A stretch of 64,000 nt of DNA from Armatimonadota bacterium (lineage in GTDB: Bacteria; Armatimonadota; Fimbriimonadia; Fimbriimonadales; Fimbriimonadaceae). The stretch is from contig JANYCU010000012.1 of NCBI GenBank assembly GCA_025360125.1, positions 25,445 through 89,444 on the forward strand, in the 5' to 3' direction. Shown piece by piece: positions 32,962-55,836 of this stretch. Every line of letters starts with the position of its first letter. Positions within the stretch are counted from its first letter, which is position 1. A program made the translations under genes and the position numbers. The notes under the pieces were generated by a model, which saw only the letters and a list, made by a program, of their open reading frames with translations, made no database searches and was not told the DNA's origin.

Positions 32962-32979
32962 TTTGGCATTTAATTGATG

Positions 32980-33618: not shown

Positions 33619-33670
33619 GCTTACACCTTTAACGTATTCTAAACCAGTTTGGTTTCTTCTTGGCGACGAA

Positions 33671-33904
33671 TTAGCGACGCCGGTTCGACGACTTCCAAAC
33701 CTTCACGAAGATGACGTAAAAGACAACGCAAACCGCCAAGACCAGGTAAGTCGTGATGTGGGTGTAGAGAACCATTTGTCCCGTTGTCGGTTTCGTTGAA
33801 CCGTCCATGGGATCGACATACGGTTGACGAACCACAAACCACGAACAAATGAGTGAAAAAACCTCAAACCCAACCAACCAAACAATCGCGGACAAGAGCT
33901 TCAT
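33671..33904 (-). CDS. Hypothetical small two-helix membrane protein
   Basis: 77 aa, two hydrophobic segments, basic C-terminus. Confidence 0.45.
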   Translation of the reverse strand: MKLLSAIVWLVGFEVFSLICSWFVVRQPYVDPMDGSTKPTTGQMVLYTHITTYLVLAVCVVFYVIFVKVWKSSNRRR

Positions 33905-33913
33905 TTCTGCAGG

Positions 33914-34243
33914 TTACTCGGGATCGACAAGGATCAAAATGCCATCGGTATCGCGGACAAATGTTTCACCCGTCCGCTCGGTAATCGCCCGGTCGATTGG
34001 AAAGCCCATTTTCGCCCATTCGCCGAGGCTATTTTGAAACTCGCCACCCGGAACTTCGACCGCAAAGGCAATATCGCTGGTCCCGTCTTCGACAAAGTAG
34101 AAGGTAAATGGCGGGGCCGATACCTCTACCCAATTCGTCGATTGCGCCGTAATTTCGGCCTCAAAACACGCCACGAACCGTTGGGCAGCCGCCTCTTTGT
34201 TGGCGACGCCGATCGCGATATTATTGCTAAATTTGGCTCTCAT
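33914..34243 (-). CDS. Glyoxalase/VOC-fold-like small protein
   Basis: 109 aa with a beta-alpha-beta-beta-beta-like pattern (IAIGVAN...AAAQRF...F.F.VE). Weak family assignment. Confidence 0.6.
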   Translation of the reverse strand: MRAKFSNNIAIGVANKEAAAQRFVACFEAEITAQSTNWVEVSAPPFTFYFVEDGTSDIAFAVEVPGGEFQNSLGEWAKMGFPIDRAITERTGETFVRDTDGILILVDPE

Positions 34244-34249
34244 ACTTTC

Positions 34250-36373: not shown

Positions 36374-36485
36374 CGGATACGGCGTTTCGGGTTGAAAGAG
36401 AATCGCTAGAAAAGCCGAAAGGATTACAGCGTTATTCTATCCCGCTCTTACGAGCAGCTTGAAGCTAGCAGCAAAAGCTTCCCAC

Positions 36486-36947
36486 TTAAATACCGTCGAG
36501 TCCCATCACGATATCCCATTCCGCCTTCGTAACTGGCATCACGCTCAATCGCTGGCCTTTTCGCACCACAAACATTTCTTCTAGCCCGGCGATGGTTCTT
36601 AACTCGGCCAGGGTAACGACCCGGTTAAACTTGCTCACAAACTCAACATCTCGCAAGAGCCAGCGCGATCCATCCTTGGGAGCCTTTTCGTCGTAATAGT
36701 CGCTTAGTGGGTCGAACTGGGTCGGGTCGGGATAGGCGTCACCGACGATTCGCATCGTGCCGACGATTCCGGTTGGATCGGCGATTGAATGGTAGAAAAA
36801 TGCCATGTCGCCGTCAGCCATCGAGTCGCGGAAGAAGTTGCGGACAGTATAGTTTCGGCACCCTTCCCACATCGCTGGCTTCCCGGCACGCGCCAAATCG
36901 TCAATCGAATAAGTCTCAGGCTCGGACTTGAAAAGCCAGTAGTTCAT
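36486..36947 (-). CDS. EVE (PUA-like) domain protein
   Basis: MNYWLFKSEPETYSIDDL...W.G.RNY..RNF...M..GD..FFYHS, a canonical EVE domain. Confidence 0.88.
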   Translation of the reverse strand: MNYWLFKSEPETYSIDDLARAGKPAMWEGCRNYTVRNFFRDSMADGDMAFFYHSIADPTGIVGTMRIVGDAYPDPTQFDPLSDYYDEKAPKDGSRWLLRDVEFVSKFNRVVTLAELRTIAGLEEMFVVRKGQRLSVMPVTKAEWDIVMGLDGI

Positions 36948-36973
36948 GTGCGGCAGTTTACTTCAGGCCGGGT

Positions 36974-37020
36974 CCAACTCCAAACGCCAAACACCAAACT
37001 CCAAGCTTCCCGACTCCATC
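36974..37020. repeat. C/A-rich heptamer-type repeat block 1
   Basis: CCAACTCCAAACGCCAAACACCAAACTCCAAGCTTCCCGACTCCATC. Confidence 0.5.
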
Positions 37021-37143
37021 CCCCCGCGAAGCGGAATGCTTCTTTGGACAGAGAAGCCAGTGAGCCAATTCCGCATGATCGCTAAATGTCATTTGGCGAA
37101 CTGGATGAGTCGATTGAGCGAAGCGAATTATCTTAACGTCTTT

Positions 37144-37180
37144 CTCCAAACTCCAAACTCCAAACTCCCAACTCCATCCT
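37144..37180. repeat. C/A-rich heptamer repeat block 2, (CTCCAAA)x3
   Basis: CTCCAAACTCCAAACTCCAAACTCCCAACTCCATCC. Its last ~27 nt align to the end of block 1. Confidence 0.5.
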
Positions 37181-37265
37181 GAATCGCTCTCGAAACAATC
37201 CGACATCCATCAAAAACACGCGTACTATTCGCCGAATCAAGGAGGTACATTCTATGCCTTAAGGA

Positions 37266-38000
37266 ATGAGACAAACCATACTTGATATCAGCGACGCCAA
37301 GGAGATTTTTGAGGGCATCGCAAAGCATTGGCGGAACTCAAACCAATCCCTTTCTGGCCCCGGAATCGTTCTCAAAGGAGACTTTACCGTCGCAGCTTTC
37401 GAGCAAGCCGTCGAATACTTTGACCAGCTCGGTGCCGCTATTGATGCCACCGTCGACCAGCGCGACCGCGCCAGCGAAAATCTGTGGCTCTACAAAACAA
37501 ACATGCGGGCAATCATGCAGCGGTTTGCTTTCCTCGTGCGAGGCCTTCACCCTGACTACGCCAAGGACCTCCCCGCTCTACCCGACGTACGGTCGCACGA
37601 AGCCAAGTTTATGGCGTCAGTCGACAAGACCTTTTTAGTGTGGAAACGCATCAACCGGGTCAGTCCGATCATCATGCCTGAAGGCACAACTCTCGAAGCG
37701 TTTGGTCAAGGAATCACCGTGATTCGAGCGGCATTCAAGTCCCGCGAACGAGCGTTCGCCCACGAGCGGCATCAACGCTCAGTCCGCAGGCAACACCACC
37801 AAGCCCTGATTAACCGAGCGGTGCAATATCGGTCCCTGGTGCTCGGAACCTTTGGCGAAGAAAGCGTGCTTTCCAAGACCCTTCCCTACCTTTGGCCCAA
37901 GCAAGATCGCTCGAAGAAGCCAAAGGAAGTCGTCGAGCAGAAGCTGGAAATTGTTTCCGGCGATCAAGGACTTGACATTCAAAATTTACAAGCAATCTAA
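37266..38000 (+). CDS. Hypothetical protein (244 aa)
   Basis: Long ORF with ordinary composition. No motif recognised. Confidence 0.6.
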   Translation: MRQTILDISDAKEIFEGIAKHWRNSNQSLSGPGIVLKGDFTVAAFEQAVEYFDQLGAAIDATVDQRDRASENLWLYKTNMRAIMQRFAFLVRGLHPDYAKDLPALPDVRSHEAKFMASVDKTFLVWKRINRVSPIIMPEGTTLEAFGQGITVIRAAFKSRERAFAHERHQRSVRRQHHQALINRAVQYRSLVLGTFGEESVLSKTLPYLWPKQDRSKKPKEVVEQKLEIVSGDQGLDIQNLQAI

Positions 38001-38186
38001 GCGCCCGCCAATTGCCTCTCCGCACGGCGGAGAGGCACGCTTCAATCTATTTCTTAAGCACGGTAGAGACCATGATGGCGGTCTTGCCGTCTTTCTTCGT
38101 TGCGACTAACGAGAACGTGGCGCCAGAGTCAGTGGTTCCCTTAACCATCATCGTATCTCCTCCGCCCATTGCCTTGCCGCCTTTGA

Positions 38187-38402
38187 CTTTGCCTGTGTAA
38201 AATTCGGCAACCTGCTTCGGAGAATCAGTGGTCGTTCGGCACCAGCGGCCAGGCTGTGGGTCACTTCTACACTGGTATTAGCGGACAAGGAACCATCACC
38301 CCAGCCTCGACAGTGCCTGAGTCTGCCTCGCTGGCCGTCCTTGGCCTCGGCGCGGTCGATCTGATTCGACAAGAAAACGAGCATAAAATAGGCAACCTAT
38401 AA
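38187..38402 (+). pseudogene. 3' remnant of a PEP-CTERM-anchored protein gene
   Basis: The frame ends ...TPASTVPESASLAVLGLGAVDLIRQENEHKIGNL*, i.e. VPEx, a hydrophobic helix and a charged tail. No plausible start or body lies upstream. Confidence 0.4.
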
Positions 38403-38434
38403 GGCCCCGAGAACGAAGTTCTCGGGGCCTTTTT
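38403..38434 (+). terminator. Strong rho-independent terminator
   Basis: GGCCCCGAGAAC-gaa-GTTCTCGGGGCC (perfect 12-bp stem) followed by TTTTT. Confidence 0.85.
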
Positions 38435-38590
38435 GCGTGTAGGGCGGAGTAAAGCAACTCGATCACCGCTATTAAGCTGCAATGACAATGATTTGTCCGA
38501 CCGATAGATTTTCGTGAGCTTCCAAGACTTAGTTGGACAAAGGCACGATCCCCGGACACTCGGCGACTCCAGATTCTCAATATTCACCTG

Positions 38591-38721
38591 AACCTTAACA
38601 CGTGGTTAGAGGTTTGTCGGCAGTTCGGGCACGGGGTGTGCCCGGAGTATTTCCGGTTCCTACCGTGGTATTCCTTCTGCTCGCTTTCTGATCCGCCCCG
38701 AGGATCTCGTTCCGCGACAGC
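38591..38721 (+). pseudogene. Truncated duplicate of the 5' end of the DUF2723 gene at 44552 (left arm of the island-flanking direct repeat)
   Basis: Positions 38601-38721 align to 44551-44698 at about 76% identity by hand alignment. Translates MVRGLSAVRARGVPGVFPVPTVVFLLLAF* versus MVRGLSAVRAGVVPKVLAVPAVAV... Confidence 0.7.
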
Positions 38722-38725
38722 AGAT

Positions 38726-39055
38726 CTAACTTTTCGGTTCAATCACGATGATTTTGCCCTGCGGTAGTGTTTCCAAAGTCTCTAAGACCTGATCGGCTAA
38801 GGGGGCGATTCCTGGGTAGTCGGTCAAGATTGAATTCAAAACGAGCACACTAATTGTACTTCCTGACATATTCTGTTGATGGCGCATTTGTTTGTCCGCC
38901 GTAATCATCACTGGAAAGCCGTACTCTTCTGACGCACTAAGTAGGCTCCCATTCTTATATTCGGCCCAGCTCAAAGTGAATGTCGCCTTTACTTCGTGAC
39001 CGACCAGCAGCTTTGCAAATCGCCAATCGACGTTATTGTCAAACAGGACCTGCAT
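38726..39055 (-). CDS. DUF5615-like (Mut7-C/PIN-like) putative toxin
   Basis: MQVLFDNNV...LLVGHEV...GFPVMITADKQM layout matches DUF5615. Internal ATG 39055 chosen, giving a 17-nt overlap with the DUF433 gene. Confidence 0.7.
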   Translation of the reverse strand: MQVLFDNNVDWRFAKLLVGHEVKATFTLSWAEYKNGSLLSASEEYGFPVMITADKQMRHQQNMSGSTISVLVLNSILTDYPGIAPLADQVLETLETLPQGKIIVIEPKS

Positions 39056-39296
39056 AGACCACCGGTTCGACGCCAAAGGTTCGACGAGCTTGATTTTGCT
39101 CCCAACGCACAACTGCGTATGCGTGATCTGGAGTTACGTTTGGAAATCCTTCGAGAAAGTCTGAAACTGGTAAGCCGCGAGTCAAGGTATCGAGCAGAGC
39201 CTGGACTGGCACGCGCGTGCCAACAAACCGCACCGCTCCGTGCAATGTATCGGGCGTCGCAATCAAAATTCCTTCCAGTTCCTTTGGGATCGTCAC
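39039..39296 (-). CDS. DUF433 putative antitoxin
   Basis: G.VRFVGTRVPVQALLDTLTRGLPVSDFLEGFPNVTPDHAYAVV matches the DUF433 signature (GTR.pv..l...l..G.s...fl..fP.vt). Confidence 0.75.
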   Translation of the reverse strand: MTIPKELEGILIATPDTLHGAVRFVGTRVPVQALLDTLTRGLPVSDFLEGFPNVTPDHAYAVVRWEQNQARRTFGVEPVVYAGPV

Positions 39297-40248
39297 AGCC
39301 CGTGTACCTCTTCATATGTATTATGCTATGAATTCGGCAAGGAATCAGCAGTTAGCTTCAAGTCGAGAGGCTCAAGTTCTGCCGAATTCGCCCGATATCT
39401 AGAACATAGTGTCAGGTTTATCCGCCGTTCGTGAACGCGTATTGAGTCCGTTCCTGCCGTCGCGGTGTAGTTCCCCAAGAAGTACCGCGACAAGCCAGTC
39501 GAGGGGACCGCGGCAGATGGTGTTTATGATTGGATGCGGCGATAGGACGAACATGTGGGGGCGGAGTCGGAGCATAGGTGTCTCGCCAGTGGAAAAGCCG
39601 AATCGCAAAAGTCCATTGAACTGATCCGGAGGATCGCATATAGTTGCCAGGGGTCATTTGTCGTTTCAGCGACATATGACCCCTGGAAAGGTCCATATCA
39701 GCCAAAAGTCCATGGAGCGGTGAAGTCTCAACTGCGTGGAGCAAGGGATAACCAGCGACCCTAAAAAAAAGAGCAAAGATATTGAGAATGAATTTCGATT
39801 TGTTCAAACTTTAGATTGGAGTTCCTTACCGCCATAATGGCGGGGTCGCTACGCTCCTCGGACTTCGAAATGATCCGTTCTTTCCAGGGGTCTACGTTCG
39901 TTCCACTCACTACGACACCCTGGCTACTTTCTTTGACCCTCCGGGTCAGGAAAACAAAATTGTTAAAAGTCCGAGGAGCGACGAACACCCACCACACACA
40001 AATGTCAAGAACAAAGCGACCCGGCGATTATCGCCGTAATGAGAACTACGAAATTCCCTTTCGAGGGGTTTGGACCTGGAGAGGCGGGCTGCGGTTTCAG
40101 CCGCATTCCGGAAGGTGGAGCCGCATCGGGACGCCGTGCAGTTCGCTCCAGACTTTTGGGTTCACGTTGACCAGTTTGGTTTGATTGGCCAGCATGAATT
40201 GGCGGGCTATCTCCCTCTGGCGAGAGGGAGCGGTGAGTTCAGTCCATT

Positions 40249-40758
40249 TCAAACCAACCTGAACTGCTGGACGAACCGAGGGAGTCGAATCATCAGAGCG
40301 CGTTTGCCGCTTGATGCCGCGGACTTGATGTTGAAGCTGTAGGTGAATCCATACCATTTATGAAACTTCACCGCCTTGCCTGGAGTCGTGCAACTCGACG
40401 AGCATCCGGCTTTGGCGGCTCTGTAGACCAGCGCCGCAATTGGCCACAGAATCGTGATGCACATAACCGCAATCCCGATTCCCAATGGCTGGCTGCCGGT
40501 TTTCCACCAGCAGAACAAATAAGAGAATCCGGCGAGGAACAGGCTCAGCCCAAACACTCCTTCTGCCATGGCCACTTTGCCAACGTGGGACTTGCATTGC
40601 GCACAATATGGGAAATCGAACGTCATGGTTTTGGTTTTGCCATTCTCAGACTTCGGGGGTCGAGTCGCGACGATCGGTACCGACGTCGTCGCCTCTTCGC
40701 CGCAGCAGGCGCATTGGGCGGGAAAGTTGAACTTCTGGCCGTTAATCTCGACTTTCAT
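40249..40758 (-). CDS. Hypothetical Cys-rich membrane protein
   Basis: N-terminal CACCG...CAQC zinc-ribbon-like pairs, two TM helices, and a C-terminal CSSSC motif. Confidence 0.55.
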   Translation of the reverse strand: MKVEINGQKFNFPAQCACCGEEATTSVPIVATRPPKSENGKTKTMTFDFPYCAQCKSHVGKVAMAEGVFGLSLFLAGFSYLFCWWKTGSQPLGIGIAVMCITILWPIAALVYRAAKAGCSSSCTTPGKAVKFHKWYGFTYSFNIKSAASSGKRALMIRLPRFVQQFRLV

Positions 40759-41035
40759 GATTGATAATATTATTGGAAAGTTGACGCTGAAGGCACAGCC
40801 AATTCCTTGCTATTCGACTGTGCACTGAGAAGTCGCAGTTCAGCAGGTTTTCATTACCTGCCATACAGGTTCTAAACCAGCTAGGAGAACCATTCGGCCC
40901 ATAACGTAAGTCCCAGGCACAACTGTGGTAGACTATCGTCTACTCTGTTGAAAAATTGGTCTCTTCGATCTCCCAATTTCACGGTAACCTTCCCCTTGAA
41001 ATTGGGAAAGAAAAACTGCAGGAGCTTGAGCAAGA

Positions 41036-42013
41036 ATGTCCAGAATATATGAACTTTTACTGGAATTGACTGAGCCAGGGACTCCCGTCAATCAACTACA
41101 CCTAAGAGAATTTTCTCGCCTCCTCGGCTGGCAGCCAACGGACAATTTTACCGTGCCAAACTTGAGTGTAACGGCGAAGGCTCACTTAATGGTCGAGCAC
41201 GGACTTGAGAATGCCGCCGTAATCAGCTTTCTTGGTCGACGCTCCTATAACGATCTAAGTTCGGAAGAAACCAGGGCCCTTCTTGGGGTCTCATACAATA
41301 ATCTAGTTGACTGGCATGTGGGCGTTAACCAAAACGAAGTAGTCTACATTTACAATCGGATGGAGTCTCCGAAAGTCGTGCATCGGTCAGAAATAGCCCG
41401 ATCAAACACTGATGCTCTTACGAATGAAGCATTTGAAAGAATTGTAGGTAGGCGCCCGAACCCAAATGTCCCAGCCCTCGATTCCGCCCTAATTGATACA
41501 ATCTCCATTTGGAAAAGAGAGCTATCTACGGCTCTTAACTATCAAGTCGACAATAATGAACTTTCGGCACTATTTAACAAAGTAATCTTTGTCAGAGCTG
41601 CCGAAGACCATGCAAAAAATAATAGGCAAGTTCAGATTGAGACTCTCCGATCGATCTGGTACCAGTCTGACAAAACCGATCTTCCCAACTACATTGCAAA
41701 GCCTTCAGTTCTAGAGAAATTCAAAGGCGTCGATAGTGTTCTATTGTCATCAATGATTGAAGATTTTTACGAAAATCGATACGCTCGTTTTTATAGTTAT
41801 GACTTTTCAGTAATGTCTAAACACGCACTTAGTCGCATTTACGAACATTATGTCAGTCTACTTAGCGTTGAGCAATCCTCTCAAGATACACTTTTTCCTA
41901 AACTTCCAAATGAAGAAAGAAATAAAGCATTCGGGAGTTTTTATACGCCTCAGTATATATCTAGATTCTTTGCTCGATATATTGCAAGATCGAATTCCAC
42001 CGAGCGCCTTTAG
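41036..42013 (+). CDS. N-terminal fragment of a frameshifted gamma-class N6-adenine DNA methyltransferase (Eco57I/type IIG-like architecture)
   Basis: Helical N-domain with VIFVRAAEDH. Ends with FGSFYTPQYISRFFARYI (the FYTP motif preceding the SAM site) and then a premature stop. Confidence 0.8.
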   Translation: MSRIYELLLELTEPGTPVNQLHLREFSRLLGWQPTDNFTVPNLSVTAKAHLMVEHGLENAAVISFLGRRSYNDLSSEETRALLGVSYNNLVDWHVGVNQNEVVYIYNRMESPKVVHRSEIARSNTDALTNEAFERIVGRRPNPNVPALDSALIDTISIWKRELSTALNYQVDNNELSALFNKVIFVRAAEDHAKNNRQVQIETLRSIWYQSDKTDLPNYIAKPSVLEKFKGVDSVLLSSMIEDFYENRYARFYSYDFSVMSKHALSRIYEHYVSLLSVEQSSQDTLFPKLPNEERNKAFGSFYTPQYISRFFARYIARSNSTERL

Positions 42014-43616
42014 GACATTAAAATCTTTAGATCCTGCCTGCGGTTCGGGAATATTTCTTCGCACTCTCTTAGAGATGCAGTGTGATCCAATGTTGAACAA
42101 TGTTACAGAGCAGACAGTTACCAGCTCTGTCGAAAATGTGATGGGATGGGATATTGACCCTAATGCTTGCCAAGCTACAGAGCTGTCATTAGCATTGCTT
42201 CACCTAGTTTTACTTAATAAACTCCCCGACAACCTACCAATTCTGGTCACAGAGAGCCTGCAGCATTTTCTCGATCACCCAGAGGTTCACGATACTCTTG
42301 ATGTTGTTCTGGCCAATCCACCATTTGTTCGTTATGAGCTTCTCTCGAATGATCTCAAAGAACGAATGGGCTTGGTTTTGGGTCAATATGGTCAGGGGCG
42401 CTCCGATTTATATTTAGCATTTCTTATGCTCGGCTTAAAGCTCTTGAAACCTGGAGGAATTGCTTGCTTTGTTGTGCCACAAAGTTTCCTTACTGGCAAA
42501 AGCTCGGGAGAAATGAGAAAGCTTATTATAGAATCAGCTTGGGTCCTATGCCTAGCAGATTTGACAAATATTCGAGTCTTTCCTGGGGTAAGCGCTTACG
42601 TATCCTTAGTCATTTTTCAGAAAAAATTTGATGGTAGCCCTGCACCTAAAGCAACATTGGTTCGCGCCCAAGATTTGGCTGGCAAAGCTTTGATGGATGC
42701 GGTAATCGGCAGAACTATTGACAATAACTATTACAGCGTGTTTCCCGTTGAGCAAAGGTTTTTTCACGACAATCCGGCTTGGATAGTTTTAAGGCCCGGT
42801 GAAGAGAGGTTAAAAGAACGATTGTCAAGCTTCCCTCATGTGGGAGAATTTCTTGAGATTAATCAAGGATTTATAACGGGTTTAGATCGCGTATTTATTC
42901 GGCCCAAAAGCGAAGTTTCGAAATCGGAAAGATCGATTTATCGTCAATACCTGCCTGATAGGCAAATGAAAAAGTATGCTTCACCCAAGGCAGTAGAAGA
43001 CCTCGTCTTCTACCCGTTTAATGAGGACGGCGATAAGATAACCGAGGAACAACTGATTAAAGCATATCCCGACACATGGAGATATTTGACCAGCCACCGG
43101 GCTCAACTTGAAAAGAGGTCCGGCAAGAGAGCCCATTGGTGGGAGCCCACGCGATCACGATCTCCGCGAAATATGATGCGACCTAAGATCATGACTCCTC
43201 ACTTGACCTTAGAACCAAGGTTTTCGATCGATATGTCAGGTCAATACGCCGTATCGAGATCTCCTTTTCTCTATCCCAAGGATCATCAATTTGAAGAGCA
43301 GTATCTTCTTTTCTTCGCTGCTGTCTTGAATTCACCAGTGGCCTACTGGTTTATGAAAATAAACTCGACTAATTTTGACAAGGGTTATTCGATGCTGGAG
43401 GGTCCTTCTATAAAGTCAACTCCAGTTCCTGATCCAAGAACAGTACCTCCCACCCAAATGAGCAAGATTTTGAATCTGGTTAGGGCAAGATGTAACGAGT
43501 TCAATGATCAGAAACTCATGGAATTAGACCGTCAGATTGACTCTGCGATTGGTGAATTGTACGGCTTGTCAGTCGAAGAACAGGTTATGCTCGGTTATCA
43601 ACATGCCTCAGATTGA
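41850..43616 (+). CDS. C-terminal fragment of the same methyltransferase (SAM-binding, catalytic NPPF and target-recognition domains)
   Basis: In the +1 frame relative to the N-fragment. LDPACGSGIFL (motif I) and VLANPPFVRYE (motif IV). TaqI/Eco57I-type C-terminal TRD. Confidence 0.85.
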   Translation: MSVYLALSNPLKIHFFLNFQMKKEIKHSGVFIRLSIYLDSLLDILQDRIPPSAFRTLKSLDPACGSGIFLRTLLEMQCDPMLNNVTEQTVTSSVENVMGWDIDPNACQATELSLALLHLVLLNKLPDNLPILVTESLQHFLDHPEVHDTLDVVLANPPFVRYELLSNDLKERMGLVLGQYGQGRSDLYLAFLMLGLKLLKPGGIACFVVPQSFLTGKSSGEMRKLIIESAWVLCLADLTNIRVFPGVSAYVSLVIFQKKFDGSPAPKATLVRAQDLAGKALMDAVIGRTIDNNYYSVFPVEQRFFHDNPAWIVLRPGEERLKERLSSFPHVGEFLEINQGFITGLDRVFIRPKSEVSKSERSIYRQYLPDRQMKKYASPKAVEDLVFYPFNEDGDKITEEQLIKAYPDTWRYLTSHRAQLEKRSGKRAHWWEPTRSRSPRNMMRPKIMTPHLTLEPRFSIDMSGQYAVSRSPFLYPKDHQFEEQYLLFFAAVLNSPVAYWFMKINSTNFDKGYSMLEGPSIKSTPVPDPRTVPPTQMSKILNLVRARCNEFNDQKLMELDRQIDSAIGELYGLSVEEQVMLGYQHASD

Positions 43617-44139
43617 AATTACAATTAATGACCTTACGCTCAGGATGAAATCTGCCAAGAACCTGCTAAAACCCATAGCGGATTCCTTTTCAAGTGTTAT
43701 GTCTGTCAACAGATCTTACAATGGATATTTGGCTATTGGTGCTTATTCCGGTGGTGCTGTCGGCATTCCTGCGTCTTGGAGAGTGAAATGCGAAAAAGGC
43801 ATATATGTAAATTACTATGAGTTATGGCAAGAATTCGGTCAAAAAGGCAACTACTTCCTAAGTACAGTTTGTCTAAATTTCTACCGACTCGACGGATTCT
43901 CCGGCACAGAAGAAGAATTATTTATGATCCATGCGGATCCCGACTGGTTATCTACTAGACCGCACGGCGTCTACAAAAAAGGTCCCCACCTCCATGTTAT
44001 TTCCGGAGATTGGGCTCATGTACATATCGGCCTAAATGTCGGTCATCTCAGCCAAGTACTCAAATCGCCGAGTAGCCTGAGTCTAGCCCTGGCCTCCGGC
44101 GTGGACTTAGTTGCGAATCAAATTCTTCCCGTGTTGTAA
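43603..44139 (+). CDS. Hypothetical 178-aa protein translationally coupled to the methyltransferase
   Basis: ATG 43603 lies 14 nt inside the methyltransferase 3' end. His-rich motifs IHADPDW, GPHLHV and HVHIG. No family recognised. Confidence 0.6.
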   Translation: MPQIEITINDLTLRMKSAKNLLKPIADSFSSVMSVNRSYNGYLAIGAYSGGAVGIPASWRVKCEKGIYVNYYELWQEFGQKGNYFLSTVCLNFYRLDGFSGTEEELFMIHADPDWLSTRPHGVYKKGPHLHVISGDWAHVHIGLNVGHLSQVLKSPSSLSLALASGVDLVANQILPVL

Positions 44140-44551
44140 ATATCTTAGATTTTGGTTCACGTTTGTCAAACAATAGTCGGGTATTTCCTAAATGCAAACG
44201 GTTGGCAAGATGCCCGTGCCTTAAATACATTCCCCAGAACTTTCGGAGACTTAACACGAAGCCAGCGCTGCTCGCCCTCACCCCTGCGCCCCCCTTGGGA
44301 CTTCGTTCCGTCATCCATGGCCTCAACCGAACCCCCATCCCTCACCCTTCCCCCTCTGCAAAGCCCGACAAGGGGAAGGGAATATAGGCTCATGTTCCAC
44401 CAGATTCGCCCGCCCCGGTTCGCTTCGCTCACTTCCCTCGTCCCGTCAGGTCGGGATTTCCCCATTGCTGCTTCGCAGCTCCTCTCAACTAGCTCGGCGG
44501 GACGTCGGAAATTGGACTGAAGTTCCACCAATTCGAACCGAAACCTAAAGT

Positions 44552-46630
44552 GTGGTAAGAGGTTTGTCGGCAGTTCGCGCAGGGGTAGTGCCCAAGGTTT
44601 TGGCGGTTCCCGCCGTAGCGGTCACGCTCGCCGTCTTCGCCGTCGCCTTCCCCCTCCTCGCTTTCTTCTCCGCTCCCGGAATCTCCTTTCACGACAGCGG
44701 TGAGTTCGCCCTCGCCCTCGCCTCCAACGGACTTCCCCATTCGCCCGGAGCGCCGACCTGGGCGATCCTCAACCAGCTTTTCCACCTCCTCACCTTCAAC
44801 GCAGAGGCCGCCAGAAGCGCCAACCTGTTCAGCGCATTCTGCGGAGCCGCCACCGCCGCATTCGCCAGCGCATTCGTCTTCCGACATTTTAGCGACCGCA
44901 CCAAACCCACTCAATGGCTTGCGGCCAGCATCACCGCCTTAAGCATCCTCTGCACCGGCGCGTTCCTCGAACAGTCGTTCATCGCCGAGCAATACACCCT
45001 CATGACGATGTTCATGAGCGCCATTTTGCTAGTGGTGCAGACCAACGATTCGAACCCGAAAGCGTCGTGGTTCTACCTGATGGGCCTGTTGTGGGGGCTC
45101 GCGCTCGGCAACCACCCCAGCCAAGTCATCCTCGGTTTCCTGATGCTGCTTCCCGTGCTCCAAAGCCGAAAATCAGTGCCCATTTTAAAGTCCATCCCGA
45201 TGGGAATTGTCGGAATTCTTACCGGACTTCTCGTCTTTGTTTGGCTACCCATAAGGGCAGCGGCCCACCCAACTCTCGCATGGGGTCACCCAGACAACTG
45301 GACCCGCTTCCTATGGAACATCGGCCGCGAACAATGGCCCACTCGGGCCATGTCCACCGCCCCAATGGGGTTCACGAAGGCCTGGTTTAATTCGTACAAT
45401 CTTTTCGGCGAGATGGGCTTCATCAGCACGATTCTGGCCGTTTTCGGCACCGTTCTTGGCCTGCGACGGGCCATCAAGCCACTTGGTTGGATCGCGTTTC
45501 TCGTGATTCCCTACACCCTATTGATGCTCGCTGGCCACCTTCGCCAAAGCGGAATGGACCTCATCTATCTCCGATTCTATGGCGTGCGCGACTGGCACAT
45601 CCCGGTCTACATGGGCCTATCGATCTTGGGTGGAATGGGCGCAGTCTGGCTCGTCGATCTCCGTCACAAATGCACCGAGCGGGTCCGAATCGGAACGCTC
45701 AGCACAGCAGCGCTAGCCCTTGGCGGCTGGATGCCTTTCCAAATTTCTCGAGAATCGATGCAGGGCTACGACCAGGGCAGAAACTACGCCCATGCGTACC
45801 TTGATTCACTTCCCAGCGACGCCATTCTTGCCACTTTCAGCGACGACACTTCACACATCATCGGCTACGAGCACTACGCGAACAAATTGGCCCCGAGCAT
45901 TTACTTCACATTCGGGATGCCGCAAAACGTATACGAGCAGGATCCCGCCAAAGGTTGGAACCTAGAATCCAAACGAGCATTCCTGACTGATTACATCTTT
46001 CGAGCATCGCTTAACCCTCTCTGTCTTCCCCGAATATTGACCGAGGACGAGATAAAGAATCGACCACTGTTTACCGAGTACACATCGAGCGAAGTAGGCG
46101 ATATTAGCCAGTACTGTTTGCCGCACGGCTACACACTACAGCTACTTGAGCGCAAGACTACCGACGACGAAGTCATCGCCGCCGACAACCAATTTAAAGC
46201 TCAGCACCCCGAGCTGTTTATCAAACCGACCACCTCCCAGCACCGCCTAACTCGGGAGGGTTTTAGCTACGCCCACCTTCGCCGTGGGCTCTTCTTCATG
46301 AAACGCAAAATGTGGCAACAGGTGAAAGATGAGCTCGAAATCGCATTAGCGTGGGAACCCGAAAATCCGCAAATCATGTTTCCTTACGGGGCCGCTCTCG
46401 AAGAACTCAAAGACTACCGTGGAGCCGAAAAGGCGTACCTAACCTGCATTGATGTCATGCCCGATTATCCGACTGCCCGGCAGAATCTAGCTTTGCTCTA
46501 TCTATACGCAGGTCGCGACGACTTGGCGATGAAATATGCCCAGGAAGAACTTGTCCTCACTCGCGGGGCCAAGAATACGAAAGATCTGATCTCATTGCTT
46601 GAGAAGAAGTCGAAAACTACAAGTCGGTAA
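44552..46630 (+). CDS. DUF2723 (TMEM260-like glycosyltransferase-fold) multi-pass membrane protein with C-terminal TPR repeats
   Basis: SFHDSGEFALALASNGLPHSPGAPTW signature, about 10 TM helices, and a TPR-like C-terminus. GTG start. Confidence 0.85.
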   Translation: MVRGLSAVRAGVVPKVLAVPAVAVTLAVFAVAFPLLAFFSAPGISFHDSGEFALALASNGLPHSPGAPTWAILNQLFHLLTFNAEAARSANLFSAFCGAATAAFASAFVFRHFSDRTKPTQWLAASITALSILCTGAFLEQSFIAEQYTLMTMFMSAILLVVQTNDSNPKASWFYLMGLLWGLALGNHPSQVILGFLMLLPVLQSRKSVPILKSIPMGIVGILTGLLVFVWLPIRAAAHPTLAWGHPDNWTRFLWNIGREQWPTRAMSTAPMGFTKAWFNSYNLFGEMGFISTILAVFGTVLGLRRAIKPLGWIAFLVIPYTLLMLAGHLRQSGMDLIYLRFYGVRDWHIPVYMGLSILGGMGAVWLVDLRHKCTERVRIGTLSTAALALGGWMPFQISRESMQGYDQGRNYAHAYLDSLPSDAILATFSDDTSHIIGYEHYANKLAPSIYFTFGMPQNVYEQDPAKGWNLESKRAFLTDYIFRASLNPLCLPRILTEDEIKNRPLFTEYTSSEVGDISQYCLPHGYTLQLLERKTTDDEVIAADNQFKAQHPELFIKPTTSQHRLTREGFSYAHLRRGLFFMKRKMWQQVKDELEIALAWEPENPQIMFPYGAALEELKDYRGAEKAYLTCIDVMPDYPTARQNLALLYLYAGRDDLAMKYAQEELVLTRGAKNTKDLISLLEKKSKTTSR

Positions 46631-47987
46631 GTAGCCCGCCAAGGATCCGAATGCCTTCGTCGATTCTCGATTCGGTCTGATTGCCAAAACACACTCGAAT
46701 GCAACGGGATTGTTCAGACTCGCCAAAAAGCATTGCACCTGGCGTAAACGCAACCCCGCATTCGACCGCCCGGTCATACATCGCCCGCTGATCAAAGTCA
46801 TGCCCCAAATCGACTTTGCACCCAAACCCGGCCATCGGCACCGACCATGTGACGCCCTTGGGAAAGTGCTTCGCCATGGCCGACATCAAGGCATCCCGAC
46901 GCTTCCGATATCGAGGGGTACACCGTGTGATTTGGTCTTGAAACATTCCCTTACGCATATAACTCGCCATCGCGATCTGCGTGGGCAAGCCCAATCCGCC
47001 CGTTTCAAGTTGCTGAATCGCGGCCAAATCTCGGCAAACGTGGGCCTCCGCTGCGATATAGCCTAACCGAACTCCCGGGGCGAGTGAATTGGCAAAGGAT
47101 CCAACTTGAATGATTCCATCACCCGAAGCGATGAGGTCACGCGGACGTTCTCCATAGACGATTGCCGAGTTTGACGCATCTTCAACAATCGTGATTCCCG
47201 TTTCCTTCGCCATGGAAACCAGGTCCTTTCGTTTAGCCGGAGTCATGACTCGACCAGACGCGCCACAACCAGTCGGCGAAACCACTAAAACTTTTGCCTC
47301 GACGTTGGCCAACCCGTTCAAATCCGGTTCCTCCTCTGCCAAGCGAGGTACCACGTGACGTTCCAGCCCCAACGCGGCCCACCGCCGATCGCCACCCAAA
47401 TGGTCAGCCCCTTCGATCGCCACCTTGTCTCCTGGCTGCATCAAATACCGCCCCAACATGCTCAGCCCTTGCTGAGACCCCAGCGTCACGACAATATTGT
47501 CCGCCGACGCTGGCGTACCAAGTCGATTAAGCCACTCCGCAATAGCATGCCGAAGACCTAAATCACCCTCAGGTGGAGCGTAGTAAAATCCCCAAGGCGC
47601 TCGGCTGGCCACGTCCCGCATCTCGGCCAGAAACTCATCATCCCGAAAGAATCGGGGGTCAGCCACGTTGGTCGCAAACGACCGAACGTTCGACGATTCG
47701 CTCAAAGCCTCATAGTCATTTAATGGGCCATCACCGATGACCCGGCGCAAGACTAGCGCCCCCGCCTGACCCGGCAAAGGATTCGCGACCGACGTGTGGG
47801 CTCCCTGCTTCATATCCAGTAGGCCAGTCTCGGCCAGGTACTTATAAGCTCGAAAAATTGTGTCAGACGAAACTCCCTGCAAGGTCGCCATTTGCCGAAC
47901 CGTTGGCATTCTCTGCCCCGCGATGAGCTCACCGTGAATAACCTTTGACCGCAGAGATTCAGTGATTTGGCGGGCAGTTTGTTTCAT
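46617..47987 (-). CDS. MocR/PdxR-type GntR-family regulator with a PLP aminotransferase-like domain
   Basis: N-terminal winged HTH (LPTVRQMATLQGVSSDTIFRAYKYL). C-terminal class-I aminotransferase fold. Confidence 0.92.
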   Translation of the reverse strand: MKQTARQITESLRSKVIHGELIAGQRMPTVRQMATLQGVSSDTIFRAYKYLAETGLLDMKQGAHTSVANPLPGQAGALVLRRVIGDGPLNDYEALSESSNVRSFATNVADPRFFRDDEFLAEMRDVASRAPWGFYYAPPEGDLGLRHAIAEWLNRLGTPASADNIVVTLGSQQGLSMLGRYLMQPGDKVAIEGADHLGGDRRWAALGLERHVVPRLAEEEPDLNGLANVEAKVLVVSPTGCGASGRVMTPAKRKDLVSMAKETGITIVEDASNSAIVYGERPRDLIASGDGIIQVGSFANSLAPGVRLGYIAAEAHVCRDLAAIQQLETGGLGLPTQIAMASYMRKGMFQDQITRCTPRYRKRRDALMSAMAKHFPKGVTWSVPMAGFGCKVDLGHDFDQRAMYDRAVECGVAFTPGAMLFGESEQSRCIRVCFGNQTESRIDEGIRILGGLLTDL

Positions 47988-48003
47988 GCTTCTATCCTAT
48001 TCG

Positions 48004-48034
48004 ATTGTTAGAACTTAAATCAATAATTGTTAGA
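48004..48034. promoter_or_regulatory. Candidate MocR operator: two perfect ATTGTTAGA direct repeats 22 bp apart
   Basis: ATTGTTAGA occurs at 48004-48012 and 48026-48034, in the divergent region next to the MocR gene. Confidence 0.4.
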
Positions 48035-48106
48035 TTCCTAGTTCTTTTGACCGGCGTATATTCAACTGTGATTACTCTTCTCGCCTTCGCCACCATTGTG
48101 AAAAAT

Positions 48107-48550
48107 ATGCAAATTGACCCAACAAAGCAGTTCGACTTCTGGCTCGGAAACTGGACCATGGAGACCGAAACTCGCCCAGACCCTCGCGCCGATAACTGGA
48201 AAAAAAGCCAGAGCAAGAACAAAATTGAACGAGTTATGGACGGAAAAGTCATCCAAGAAAACTTCTCTGGGGTCGGCCTCGTCGGCAAAAGTTGGTCCGT
48301 GTATGACCCGACGGCAAAGCTTTGGCGACAAACGTGGGTGGACAACCAATCGAGTTATATTTCTCTAACTGGAAAATGGGAAGGCGACAAAATGGTGCTG
48401 CTCAGCATCCCGCAAAACCCTGGCGCAAAAGTCCACCGAATGGTTTTTCAAGACATCACGCCAAATTCATTTTTGTGGAAGTGGGAAGTCCAAATGAAAG
48501 ATGGCAATTGGGGCGCGATGTTTGTCTGCCACTACAAACGGGCAAAGTAA
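48107..48550 (+). CDS. Hypothetical protein
   Basis: ATG 48107 is preferred. The TTG 48005 start would lie only 17 nt from the divergent MocR start and would cover the repeat operator. No family assigned. Confidence 0.6.
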   Translation: MQIDPTKQFDFWLGNWTMETETRPDPRADNWKKSQSKNKIERVMDGKVIQENFSGVGLVGKSWSVYDPTAKLWRQTWVDNQSSYISLTGKWEGDKMVLLSIPQNPGAKVHRMVFQDITPNSFLWKWEVQMKDGNWGAMFVCHYKRAK

Positions 48551-48662
48551 GAGACTTCAAGGACCTACTTGACACGCTAGGCAGATAGCAACTTCGTCAA
48601 GTAGGTTCAAATGTAGTTGCTTTCAATGAGCAATGAAAGTTCGACCGGCTTCGTAGTACACT

Positions 48663-49763
48663 ATGATGACCATGGCGACCCTCACCCCTGAAGCAGCTCC
48701 GATTTCGATTGAAACGATTGCCGACAAGGTGTACGCTAACCAACGAATCTCGGTCGCCGAAGCCAAATTTTTGTTCGATCATCCGAACCCGCTTGAGGTT
48801 GCAGCCCTGGCTAACTTTCGTCGAGAACAGCGAACCGATCCCAATGTTGTGACCTATATCGTGGGTCGGATTCTCAACTACACCAACGTCTGCTGGGTCC
48901 GCTGCAAGTTCTGCGCGTTCTACCGAACTCCTGGAAACGAAGAAGGCTACACTCACTCGGACGAGGAAATCCTGGCCAAGGTCCAAGACACGGTCGACAA
49001 AGGCGGTGTCGAAATCCTATTTCAGGGCGGTCTGAATCCGAAGCTAAAGATCGACTATTATGAGAATATTTTCCGCAAGATCATGGCGCAGTTTCCCAAC
49101 GTCATTCTCCATGCCCTCAGCCCTGCGGAAATCATCTACATTGCCCACATTTCGAAACTAAAGCTACCTGAAACACTCAAGCGCCTTCACGCCGCCGGAC
49201 TACATTCCATTCCCGGTGCAGGCGGAGAGATCCTCGTTGATCGAGTCCGAAACATCATCGCCCCTTACAAGGATAAGACCGAAGACTGGCTCGCCTGCAT
49301 GCGTACAGCCGCAGCAATGGGCCTCAAAGGCACCGCTTCCATGATGTTCGGCCATATCGAAACGATCGATGACCGAATCGAACACTTGCTGCGGATTCGT
49401 GACTTGCAAGATGAATGTCAGCCGTTCCGCGCCTTTGTCACTTGGAACTTTCAACCGGAAGACACCATGCTCCAAATTCCGCAAAAGGCCTCTGCCGCGG
49501 ACTATCTGCGTACTTTGGCGGTCTCTCGGATCTTCCTAGATAACTTTGACAATATTCAGCTTTCGATTCTCACTCAGGGTCCGAAGATCGCTCAAATGGG
49601 CCTCAAGTATGGAGCGAACGATTTTGGCAGCGTGATGATTGAAGAAAACGTCGTTTCAGCGGCGGGAAATAAGTTCATCCTGAACTCGGAAGAGTTTGAA
49701 CGATTGATCAAAGACGCCGGGTATGAGCCACGAAGACGTAATACTCGCTACGAATTGATTTAG
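48663..49763 (+). CDS. Radical SAM enzyme of the futalosine menaquinone pathway (MqnC/MqnE family, MqnC-like)
   Basis: NYTNVCWVRCKFCAFYR CxxxCxxC cluster. GGLNP, HALSPAEI, SIPGAGGEIL and MMFGHIET blocks are typical of MqnC/MqnE/CofH. Confidence 0.88.
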   Translation: MMTMATLTPEAAPISIETIADKVYANQRISVAEAKFLFDHPNPLEVAALANFRREQRTDPNVVTYIVGRILNYTNVCWVRCKFCAFYRTPGNEEGYTHSDEEILAKVQDTVDKGGVEILFQGGLNPKLKIDYYENIFRKIMAQFPNVILHALSPAEIIYIAHISKLKLPETLKRLHAAGLHSIPGAGGEILVDRVRNIIAPYKDKTEDWLACMRTAAAMGLKGTASMMFGHIETIDDRIEHLLRIRDLQDECQPFRAFVTWNFQPEDTMLQIPQKASAADYLRTLAVSRIFLDNFDNIQLSILTQGPKIAQMGLKYGANDFGSVMIEENVVSAAGNKFILNSEEFERLIKDAGYEPRRRNTRYELI

Positions 49764-49803
49764 TCGCCAGTTAGCTGGAGTTGAGTAGCTATAATTTGGC
49801 AAC

Positions 49804-52137: not shown

Positions 52138-52197
52138 CCTCGTTGAATAGGGCGATCCGGACTAACTTTTTCGCCCAAAACCGTCTATTATTAAGCT

Positions 52198-52614: not shown

Positions 52615-52617
52615 GCA

Positions 52618-55700: not shown

Positions 55701-55836
55701 AAATAATCCAACAAGACAATACTTATCTTATCCAGGTAAATAATGCCCGTTCGAATTGGCAACTGTACCGCTTTTTCCTAAAACTTACCAAAAAAGTATT
55801 GAATGACAGGACTCCAATATACGTCTTACTTAAGGA

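Follow-up and report, generated by a model that had tools for sequence, protein, structure and literature searches.

Why does the start of an intact DUF2723 gene recur several times upstream of that gene, and was the DNA between the copies brought in by one integrating element? In the 64-kb stretch analysed here (the window, to whose positions all numbering refers), an earlier sequence-only reading had seen two such copies bracketing an AT-richer island, and had taken them for the attL/attR footprint of a single element. We found the repeat observation partly confirmed and its interpretation partly supported. The best reading of the region is that it is an ordinary decaying hotspot, in which the gene start underwent repeated duplication and unrelated DNA accumulated between the resulting copies. 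We lean toward regarding the 6.5 kb from 38040 to 44552 as a fragile intergenic junction where material accumulated in several events rather than as one integrated element.

Copies of the DUF2723 leader

By leader we mean the upstream region together with the 5' end of the DUF2723 gene. The features of the region are as follows.

38001-38040, no strand: hairpin terminator after a 244-aa gene (inverted repeat gcctctccgc/gcggagaggc), the last stretch collinear with the related genome L022
38256-38431, plus strand: relic of a PEP-CTERM protein gene, its translation showing the C-terminal sorting signal VPESASLAVLGLGAV, with an intrinsic terminator (38401-38431)
38472-38575, minus strand: pseudogene remnant of a second DUF5615 toxin gene that keeps just the 3' end and contains an in-frame stop
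38565-38721, plus strand: left leader copy (WinL), which spans DUF2723 from about -37 to +147, lacks 27 nt and stops prematurely
38726-39296, minus strand: intact two-gene DUF433-DUF5615 TA-like module (DUF5615, 38726-39112; DUF433, 39039-39296)
39368-39466, plus strand: newly found leader copy (WinM), about -45 to +55; translation VSGLSAVRERVLSPFLP
39619-40039, no strand: cluster of three structured intergenic repeats of about 130 nt in alternating orientation
40249-40758, minus strand: putative Cys-rich (CxxC...CxxC) two-TM membrane protein, 169 aa
40761-44228, no strand: the sole block foreign by composition
41036-43616, plus strand: Eco57I-family, type IIG-like R-M pseudogene with one frameshift near 41982
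43603-44139, plus strand: 178-aa ORF whose family is widespread though unannotated, in the same AT-rich block as the R-M gene
44229-44258, plus strand: newly found leader copy (U5), upstream part only (-29 to -1), breaking exactly at the start-codon position
44386-44412, plus strand: possible further partial leader copy (Win4), weak
44515-44698, plus strand: right leader copy (WinR), made up of the functional upstream region plus codons 1-49 of the intact DUF2723/TMEM260-like gene (44552-46630)

The direct repeat between WinL and WinR is real (blastn, E about 1e-12), and the likeness begins about 37 nt 5' of the GTG at 44552. Positions 38565-38666 match 44515-44616 with 71% identity over 102 nt (E 1.8e-12), including a 65-nt core that is 80% identical (E 3e-11), and 38663-38721 match 44640-44698 with 75% identity (E 2.6e-6). 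An nhmmer profile drawn from six other genomes alone found WinL at E 1.9e-13, WinM at E 1.9e-6 and WinR at E 1.8e-52. As had been reported, the copies differ by 27 in-frame nucleotides, absent from WinL, and WinL translates as VVRGLSAVRARGVPGVFPVPTVVFLLLAF and then stops; reading its GTG start as M gives the MVRGL... of the earlier translation. The 3' end of WinL does lie beside the DUF5615 stop codon at 38726, at a distance of 4 nt and not 5. WinL truly derives from the DUF2723 5' end and is non-functional. Because the copies are short and no more than 64-80% identical, and the source is a metagenome-assembled genome, chance similarity or an assembly artefact could be envisioned. We regard this as extremely improbable; it is already refuted by the E values (about 1e-12 within the window, 2e-13 with the independent profile) and by Logan assemblies of two further runs, SRR23617199 and SRR23617308, which are 100% identical to the window over 32090-44373 and 44351-56630.

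The two bracketing copies are accompanied by others that the sequence-only reading had missed. WinM aligned locally with WinR, L024 and L004 at z 8-11; its core is of the GGTTTATCCGCC type, as in L024, L015 and L059b, and departs at 3 of 18 positions from the AGAGGTTTGTCGGCAGTTCG-type core, a 20-nt stretch that is exact in WinL, WinR and L022. U5 is the copy closest to the native upstream region of the sister genome L022 (26/30 identity to L022 1720-1749, z 10.7; score 22 against 8.9±1.2 for shuffles, with 0 of 500 as high). Win4 reached an nhmmer E of only 3.8, with 81% identity to 39368-39394 (z 5.9, local alignment). There are at least four leader copies, which split the region into blocks of different age. 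The four robust ones (WinL, WinM, U5 and WinR) are all co-oriented, and U5, Win4 and WinR are spaced by 157 and 129 nt. The copies are 57-66% identical over 90-200 nt. Downstream of the core WinR is 82% identical to L022, and the downstream part of WinL is equally far from WinR and L022 (about 64%); upstream, L022 is matched at 27/45 positions by WinL and at 21/45 by WinR. Twice, in one orientation, a DUF5615 3' end is followed by a leader copy: at 38472-38575 with 38565-38721 and at 38726-39296 with 39368-39466.

Host-like relics and a foreign block

The DNA left of WinL consists of relics. The PEP-CTERM remnant was detected with the 241-aa PEP-CTERM proteins of L059/L061 (tblastn, E 1.4e-4), genomes in which this gene stands directly 3' of the 244-aa gene; the relic agrees with the older gene order. 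Its terminator combines a perfect inverted repeat of 14 bp with a trailing T-run. A second DUF5615 3' fragment (38480-38575) had previously escaped notice: 38480-38563 is 64% identical to 38740-38823 (score 24 against 8.6±1.2 for shuffles, 0 of 300 as high), and its peptide reads PGIVPLSN*VLEAHENLSVGQIIVIAA (asterisk, stop), as compared with PGIAPLADQVLETLETLPQGKIIVIEPKS in the other DUF5615.

The gene content given earlier was borne out by Pfam: DUF433, DUF5615 (marginally), Eco57I/N6_Mtase and a TMEM260-like (DUF2723) domain. DUF433 scored 45.7 bits (cut-off 23.6) and DUF5615 23.0 bits, just below its cut-off of 23.8; homologs of the latter (54-64% identity) carry PF18480 and adjoin DUF433 genes, and the public gene call places its ATG at 39055. 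Judged by sequence, the pair at 38726-39296 appears to fit the description of a DUF433-DUF5615 toxin-antitoxin-like module, namely adjacent, overlapping small genes of both Pfam families. Its composition is host-like. The stretch formerly described as debris is the cluster of 130-nt repeats, with nhmmer matches at 39816-39951 (plus, E 1e-34) and 39619-39749 (minus, E 3e-26), which are themselves rows of the profile's training alignment, and at 39949-40039 (minus, E 4e-6). The motif is also present in L062, L056 and L024; the cluster had no Rfam match, and the frames scanned gave only chance-level Pfam matches at E≤1 (E 0.08-0.8). The neighbouring membrane protein, predicted from its ORF and translation, is host-like in composition, with a GC3 of 0.68 on the minus strand against 0.46 for the overlapping plus-strand ORF, and had no match in Pfam, NCBIfam or PADLOC.

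The proposed AT-richer island holds for 40761-44228 (GC 0.435 versus 0.507) and not for 38.0-40.76 kb. The GC of the former is lower than that of every same-length window in the rest of the sequence, its dinucleotide distance of 101 compares with 37±9 in the null (0 of 300 as high), and its genes have GC z-scores of -2.3 to -3.2. Enclosed genes no different from their flanks in GC and codon statistics had been named as evidence that would speak against an island; this outcome applies to 38.0-40.76 kb (38041-40760 in the composition analysis) and not to 40761-44228. The foreign block sits left of U5, hence 5' of the most native-like leader copy, and it is therefore upstream of the leader and not within the 5' end of the gene. 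The methyltransferase gene noted earlier is present, as the C-terminal part of a broken, approximately 880-aa type IIG-like gene. The frameshift near 41982, found also in two other assemblies, divides the frame into a 325-aa and a 508/588-aa ORF, which match positions 198-368 and 534-935 of the PADLOC REase_MTase_IIG profile. Over two frames the gene is collinear with 881-887-aa homologs (tblastn), and it has Pfam matches to Eco57I, N6_Mtase and TaqI_C. An intact type IIG enzyme would combine an N-terminal region, a gamma-class N6-adenine MTase domain and a TaqI_C-like specificity domain in one polypeptide of about 880 aa; here the domains are present and the frame is broken, so the gene is a pseudogene or a split gene. 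The 178-aa ORF matches 304 cluster representatives at E≤1e-3, with no match in Pfam, NCBIfam, PADLOC or PDB.

Empty sites, recombinases and the origin of the copies

The suggested search for an empty site in related genomes was successful. In the closest relative, L022 (GCA_037144295.1), EVE and the 244-aa gene are followed after 82 nt by DUF2723, an uninterrupted site with a single leader copy, and in L015, L002 and L028 the gap between the 244-aa gene and DUF2723 is 157-350 nt; the sites of these four relatives are empty or nearly so. Compared with related Armatimonadota genomes, about 6.5 kb (38041-44551) is lineage-specific. L022 832-1700 is 90% identical to window 37165-38035 (blastn), and collinearity reaches no further than 38035, some 530 nt short of WinL; the extra DNA in between consists of the PEP-CTERM gene tail, the terminator and the DUF5615 fragment, with no native upstream sequence. 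The left boundary of the extra DNA thus does not coincide with a repeat copy. In L024, moreover, the leader forms an in-phase tandem array free of cargo (11218-11687; 71% over 343 nt, E 8e-37; periods about 129-152 nt), which the U5/Win4/WinR spacing resembles; because this array has no cargo, the leader duplicates without any element.

As the sequence-only reading had stated, no integrase or transposase is present: Pfam revealed no integrase, transposase or excisionase domain, even fragmentary, in the island or elsewhere in the 64 kb. The search covered about 50 window ORFs and, at E≤1, the stop-to-stop frames of 70 aa or longer in 39.4-40.3 kb, about where a search for integrase remnants had been proposed, and no integrase domain appeared there; the remaining right-flank genes were covered by Pfam annotation already computed for the identical contig. 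There was no likeness to phage or plasmid records, and a metagenome scan for the core gave chance matches alone. A single island bracketed by attL and attR is not supported: its left boundary is off any copy, there are at least four leader copies, the foreign block lies left of U5, 38.0-40.76 kb is host-like, the L024 array lacks cargo, and the Pfam search brought up no integrase remnants.

A weaker alternative is that elements integrated one after another, by a site-specific or Campbell-type route, at an att site overlapping the DUF2723 leader and start codon. Each element would have brought a replacement leader and 5' end, as SXT/R391 does at prfC, and tandem accretion followed by internal deletions removing the integrases would have left att-flanked remnants resembling cis-mobilisable elements (CIMEs), namely the TA block from WinL to WinM and the 4.8-kb block from WinM to the U5-WinR array. 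The direct, co-oriented copies do part blocks that differ in content and composition, relatives have a single-copy empty site, and the gene is still intact despite 6.5 kb placed before it. The 20-nt exact core in WinL, WinR and L022, the weak hybrid identity pattern of WinL and the TA and R-M genes, which are typical island cargo, point the same way, as does the junction of WinM at 39467, which plain tandem duplication does not easily produce. Nevertheless, we consider this alternative doubtful. Besides the lack of recombinase fragments, the off-copy boundary at 38035, the native composition of the 38.0-40.76-kb blocks and the chance-level core scan, no att copy stands left of the DUF5615 relic, the expected place of an older attL, and U5 lies right of the foreign block, not left. 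Integration and excision do not produce an array such as that of L024, nor an in-frame insert of 63-81 nt after the DUF2723 start codon as in L028, L024, L015 and L002, whose likeness to a degenerate leader copy was judged by eye.

Alternatively, WinL and WinM might be what is left of full-length tandem DUF2723 paralogs that lost their bodies to deletion or overwriting. L059/L060 have two full-length tandem genes, of 691 and 672 aa, and both show the conserved upstream region and the core; in the window, both stumps keep the 5' end, their 3' cut positions differ, and the core of WinM belongs to a type that is older or from another lineage. We think this quite improbable. The L059 duplicates are 69% identical to each other, 77% (a) to L062 and 71.5% (b) to L004, and just 61-64% to the window protein, and the duplication is confined to the L059/L062/L004 clade. 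A separate paralog had been named as a finding that would count against an integrated element; none was found at the locus in the window's own clade as sampled (L022, L028, L024, L015 and L002, one gene each). Two independent deletions would also be required, one ending 4 nt from the toxin gene stop codon.

Returning to the decaying hotspot, from the observed copies, relics, empty sites, composition and relatives' arrays and inversions we infer the following order of events and mechanism. Inversion of the EVE/244-aa/PEP-CTERM module would have put the DUF2723 leader beside the PEP-CTERM gene, which later decayed to a tail and terminator; in L056, L059 and L062, inversions and indels end at the 244-aa/DUF2723 junction. 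The DUF433-DUF5615 pair may then have stood divergently upstream of DUF2723, and a segmental tandem duplication of the TA pair, the leader and the first approximately 147 nt of the gene would have yielded "DUF5615 relic-WinL" and "DUF5615-DUF433-WinM", joined 4 nt from the DUF5615 stop codon, with a later deletion trimming the left unit. One such duplication explains both the twice-repeated order and the 4-nt joint, and the co-oriented copies with the same internal order, as well as the duplication without cargo in L024, are what tandem duplication predicts. Further leader duplications could have produced the U5/Win4/WinR mini-array (periods 157 and 129 nt) by the same process as the L024 array and the in-frame inserts of L028, L015 and L002; in L002, 75 nt from the 3' end of the upstream gene are also duplicated within the same spacer. 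Unrelated DNA would have been inserted into, or have replaced, dispensable copies: the 130-nt repeat cluster, the orphan membrane-protein gene and, most recently, the horizontally acquired 3.5-kb AT-rich block with the since-frameshifted type IIG-like R-M gene and the 178-aa ORF. The duplications may be ascribed to illegitimate or unequal recombination, with no dedicated integrase. Against this, copies that are 57-66% identical over 90-200 nt are too diverged to reconstruct the order of events, and the hybrid identity pattern of WinL is one that an att crossover would give. Simple tandem duplication also fails for the loss of the WinM gene body at +55 with the intact gene 5 kb downstream, which needs replacement or insertion plus another duplicate.

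Comparison with known systems

The SXT element reportedly supplies a replacement promoter and N-terminus. A review (PMC5812530), citing Hochhut & Waldor 1999 and Hochhut et al. 2001, describes SXT/R391 ICEs as integrating into the 5' end of prfC and as forming tandem arrays. The present locus is similar in that DNA was inserted at the 5' end of a protein gene that stays intact through an adjacent replacement upstream region and start, and in that direct target repeats flank the insert and several copies can stand in tandem. It differs from SXT/R391, with its tyrosine integrase, short identical core and sharp boundaries, in having no integrase, copies of 57-80% identity, an off-copy left boundary and a foreign block 5' of the native-like leader copy.

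Genomic islands are also said to evolve by deletion and tandem accretion, with CIMEs derived from ICESt1/ICESt3. Like CIMEs, the locus has blocks without recombination genes between repeated att-like sequences at one chromosomal site, with mosaic contents of different ages; CIMEs, however, keep att sites identical to those of the cognate ICE and are found beside that ICE in related strains, whereas here neither a cognate element nor an integrase was found.

In bacterial genome evolution generally, unequal or illegitimate recombination gives rise to segmental or tandem duplications, of which the redundant copy then degenerates. The co-oriented copies, the toxin fragment-then-leader order seen twice, the in-phase array of L024 and the decaying stumps fit this process, although plain duplication neither brings in an AT-rich R-M block nor explains the junction of WinM at 39467. 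Finally, hotspots of horizontal transfer, including chromosomal integration hotspots and defence islets, reportedly lie between conserved core genes. Although descriptions of such sites do not usually include repeats of a 5' end from the flanking gene, the locus shares with them a single intergenic interval that is empty in some genomes and holds TA, R-M and unknown genes in others, with rapid decay.

Copies of the DUF2723 leader and start region

The sequence-only reading had aligned by hand an imperfect direct repeat, built from the 5' end of the DUF2723 gene, and had taken its two copies as attL/attR-like ends of a single island of ~5.8 kb. The repeat was confirmed by two matches inside the window, one of 38565-38666 to 44515-44616 (E 1.8e-12) and one of 38663-38721 to 44640-44698 (E 2.6e-6). 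The locus holds four or more copies of the leader.

38565-38721: left copy (WinL)
39368-39466: third copy, from −45 to about +55 (WinM)
44229-44258: fourth copy (U5)
44386-44412: fifth copy, weak (Win4)
44515-44698: functional copy (WinR), with the gene's GTG at 44552

WinL and WinR are 80% identical over a 65-nt core that contains an exact shared stretch of 20 nt, AGAGGTTTGTCGGCAGTTCG. Because the similarity starts ~37 nt upstream of the GTG, the repeat takes in the upstream region and not coding sequence alone. The 27-nt in-frame deletion in WinL was confirmed, as was its translation, VVRGLSAVRARGVPGVFPVPTVVFLLLAF followed by a stop codon (with the GTG start read as M), and a profile made solely from orthologous 5' sequences of six further genomes recovered WinL at E 1.9e-13. 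The conserved leader/start region of DUF2723, roughly 75 nt long, reads CTCCAGATTC...CTTAACACGTGG..AGAGGTTTGTC. WinM and U5 had been overlooked. WinM translates to VSGLSAVRERVLSPFLP; its alignments with WinR and with two related loci (L024 and L004) give z 8-11, and the six-genome profile found it at E 1.9e-6. U5 matches the native upstream region of the closest relative, L022, at 26 of 30 positions (z 10.7) and ends exactly at the start-codon position. The identity pattern of WinL is weakly hybrid, with 27/45 to L022 as against 21/45 for WinR in the upstream part and ~64% to both downstream.

Pairwise identities of the 5' copies, compared with eleven orthologous sequences, pointed to no lineage as the donor of WinL or WinM. 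The leader inserts of L024 and L028 showed no significant similarity to 44259-44514 (z 0.2-3), and alignment and inspection revealed no att copy above chance in 38432-38479, left of the DUF5615 relic. The core AGAGGTTTGTCNGCNGTTCG was found at 16 loci in JGI metagenome contigs, all of them chance matches and none homologous to this locus. Chance similarity and assembly artefact are both excluded as the source of the repeat; over this region, the Logan assemblies of two further runs match the window at 100% identity, which argues against an artefact.

In both of these runs one Logan contig stops at 44373 and the next begins at 44351. No 25-mer of this interval is repeated in the window, and a local inverted repeat (CCCTTCCCC...GGGGAAGGG) lies there; strain heterogeneity is possible at this point. 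A leader RNA or riboswitch was considered and dropped, as RNAalifold gave no convincing structure for the leader of six orthologs (−3 kcal/mol). Integron attC-like motifs seen by eye in the leader (ACTTAAC and GTTAGAG) were rejected because they are wrongly spaced, L022 lacks the motif and there is no IntI.

Empty and filled sites in related genomes

Relatives were gathered through the DUF2723 protein and the lineage-specific 244-aa protein encoded upstream of it. In the closest relative (L022, GCA_037144295.1) the 244-aa protein shows 99% amino acid and 90% nucleotide identity and DUF2723 86%, and the order is EVE gene, 244-aa gene, 82 nt, DUF2723, aminotransferase. The gap before DUF2723 is 157 nt in L028, ~265 nt in L015, ~350 nt in L002, ~1 kb in L024 and 6.5 kb in the window. 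The predicted empty site thus exists, and 38041-44551 is lineage-specific. The repeat copies are nevertheless not the boundaries of the extra DNA: the window is collinear with L022 up to 38035, where a conserved terminator hairpin ends, and then again only at the leader copies, which leaves WinL 530 nt inside.

The near-complete amino acid identity of the 244-aa protein (37266-38000), despite only 90% nucleotide identity, indicates that it is under very strong purifying selection; it has no match in Pfam, NCBIfam or PADLOC. Its gene is usually the divergent neighbour of the EVE-domain gene, except in L024 and L028. A 2.5-kb segment (33936-36486), with a 109-aa ORF and a GH127 beta-L-arabinofuranosidase gene, is missing from L022, so that the EVE/244-aa module is variable on both sides. 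Downstream of DUF2723, the GntR-family aminotransferase and DUF1579 genes (46617-48550) are missing from L002 and L003, in which a CofH-like radical SAM gene directly follows DUF2723.

Composition and content of the 6.5 kb

The island was said to be AT-richer than its flanks. This holds for 40761-44228, whose GC content (0.435 vs 0.507) is below that of every same-length window elsewhere, with a dinucleotide distance of 101 against a null of 37±9 and gene GC z-scores of −2.3 to −3.2. It does not hold for the rest, since the TA pair (a DUF433-DUF5615 module, 38726-39296, minus strand), 39.5-40.76 kb and 38.0-38.56 kb are host-like; the AT-richer island is therefore a 3.5-kb block within the 6.5 kb.

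Pfam identified EVE (36486-36947), DUF5615 (marginal score), DUF433, one Eco57I/N6_Mtase/TaqI_C protein and a TMEM260-like (DUF2723) glycosyltransferase with TPRs. What had been read as a methyltransferase does carry methyltransferase domains, but it is the distal part of a type IIG-like enzyme of ~880 aa. The 588-aa ORF and the 325-aa ORF upstream of it match consecutive parts of one PADLOC profile (REase_MTase_IIG), and three homologs of 881-887 aa are collinear with the R-M gene across a frame change near 41982. Its best relatives, at ≤50% identity, are scattered over many phyla. The 178-aa ORF adjoining the broken gene (43603-44139) belongs to an unannotated family whose members are ~180 aa long, with 304 cluster representatives at E≤1e-3 and 92 at E≤1e-10.

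Two relics had escaped notice. Directly left of WinL lies a 3' pseudogene fragment of DUF5615 (38472-38575; score 24 vs 8.6±1.2 for shuffles), so the order toxin 3' end, leader copy is present twice. The second, 38256-38431, comprises the end of a gene for a PEP-CTERM protein together with its terminator. In L056, L059 and L061 the gene immediately after the 244-aa gene encodes a 241-aa PEP-CTERM protein, and the fragment is left over from an earlier gene order and was not imported.

The stretch dismissed as debris (39.6-40.04 kb) consists of three alternately oriented copies of a ~130-nt repeat, which within the window is confined to the island.

Copies of the ~130-nt repeat
39619-39749, minus strand, window
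39816-39951, plus strand, window
39949-40039, minus strand, window
10695-10835, L062, intergenic
7687-7848, L056, intergenic
16494-16599, L024, intergenic

Three hairpins are predicted in it (CCGCCATAATGGCGG; CCAGGGGTC...GACACCCTGG, in which L062 has a compensatory change; and GACCC..GGGTC), and five predicted pairs keep pairing despite changes on both sides. Its copies in relatives sit close to breaks in synteny: the one in L056 immediately 3' of EVE, the one in L062 flanked by acetyltransferase and topoisomerase genes. Rfam contains no match to it; a MITE and a small RNA are both possible identities.

As the sequence-only reading had stated, no integrase or transposase domain was found, either in the ~50 window ORFs scanned with Pfam or in 39.6-40.04 kb; the remaining right-flank genes, judged from the precomputed annotation of the identical contig, hold housekeeping-type Pfam families only. 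No integrase remnant was found in 39.4-40.3 kb (Pfam at E≤1, stop-to-stop frames of at least 70 aa), Rfam gave nothing meaningful over 37900-44800, and the whole 6.5 kb had no match in phage and plasmid collections (blastn, distant mode). Close homologs of the DUF5615 toxin occur elsewhere in varying contexts, not adjacent to DUF2723, and these contexts give no hint that DUF2723 is the target of a TA-bearing element.

Rearrangement at the junction and origin of the locus

The "165-aa ORF" of L024 (11218-11687) is an in-phase tandem array of the leader unit, free of cargo (71% over 343 nt, E 8e-37, periods of ~129-152 nt). Four relatives carry an in-frame insert of 63-81 nt right after the DUF2723 GTG, encoding the peptide PRLRQINPHRFEDSATPPSG.

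Inserts at the DUF2723 start codon
10439-10522, L028
11638-11706, L024
2891-2959, L015
~1231-1300, L002

Because the insert length is always a multiple of three, the data support the GTG as the true start of a protein that would gain a variable N-terminal extension. By eye, the insert appears to be a degenerate copy of the upstream region. In L002, moreover, 75 nt from the 3' end of the 244-aa gene are present twice as direct repeats (921-995 and 1101-1174, on either side of ~105 nt of spacer), a second kind of gene-end-built repeat in the same intergenic region. From lineage to lineage, the EVE/244-aa (/PEP-CTERM) module occurs in opposite orientations relative to its flanks, and the DUF2723 leader marks one of the breakpoints; DUF2723 faces the EVE gene in L062 and the 244-aa gene in the window. 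Given these arrays, inserts, duplications and inversions, the junction before DUF2723 is a recurrent site of duplications, inversions and indels. Two full-length tandem DUF2723 genes in L059 raise the question of whether WinL and WinM are stumps of lost paralogs; we consider this improbable, as that duplication is proper to the L059/L062/L004 clade and not to that of the window.

A single integrase-mediated attL/attR island agrees with the empty site and fails on integrase, boundaries and composition alike; the shared core, with 20 exact nt in WinL and WinR but four or more leader copies in all, points neither way. Best supported, and in our view slightly more probable than not, is a layered, decaying hotspot, for which we infer the following order of events and mechanism. 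Segmental duplication of the TA pair, the leader and ~147 nt of the gene, followed by one deletion, would give two toxin-then-leader units, a joint 4 nt from the toxin stop codon and no leader copy farther left. Leader-only duplications of the L024 type would account for the distances of 157 and 129 nt that separate U5, Win4 and WinR. The AT-rich R-M block would have been acquired horizontally in a separate event, and has since been frameshifted; because U5, which of all copies most resembles the L022 native upstream region, lies downstream of the block, the block would not have integrated into the gene's 5' end.

Alternatively, one could envision that elements integrated one after another by an att-type or Campbell-type route, accreted in tandem and later lost their integrases (SXT/prfC-like, CIME-like). 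The exact 20-nt core, the hybrid pattern of WinL and the WinM/39467 junction, which plain duplication does not explain, are consistent with this history, but it is made unlikely by the lack of a recombinase, by an insertion boundary that does not coincide with a repeat copy, by where U5 lies and by the arrays without cargo in relatives. Still less probable, in our view quite improbable, is that the ~75-nt leader/start region is a dedicated site for a recombinase encoded elsewhere in the genome, with repeated insertion at the start codon, a replacement start supplied each time and leader-scar arrays throughout one Armatimonadota lineage; such recombination might also involve the ~130-nt repeat, which occurs at several synteny breakpoints. 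If the leader were a true recombination target, it would add a rare case beyond the SXT/R391 family in which insertion targets a gene's 5' end and replaces its start codon; the evidence does not favor this.

Both the sequence-only observation and its interpretation hold up in part. The locus behaves most like an integration/rearrangement hotspot with duplication and degeneration and is, for all its unusually clear layering, an ordinary variable region of an uncultured lineage. Its lesson is mainly cautionary: gene-end direct repeats around TA and R-M genes mimic attL/attR, and comparison with sister genomes reveals instead a layered junkyard with several copies of the repeat and remnants of earlier gene arrangements. 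It also documents one well-resolved hotspot in Armatimonadota, with states that are empty or of 157 nt, ~350 nt, ~1 kb and 6.5 kb, and shows that a gene's leader can duplicate repeatedly while the gene survives. SXT/R391 elements use a 5'-end target in prfC and form tandem arrays (PMC5812530); the present locus resembles them in outcome only, in that the gene is preserved behind the insert and copies of the target are repeated.
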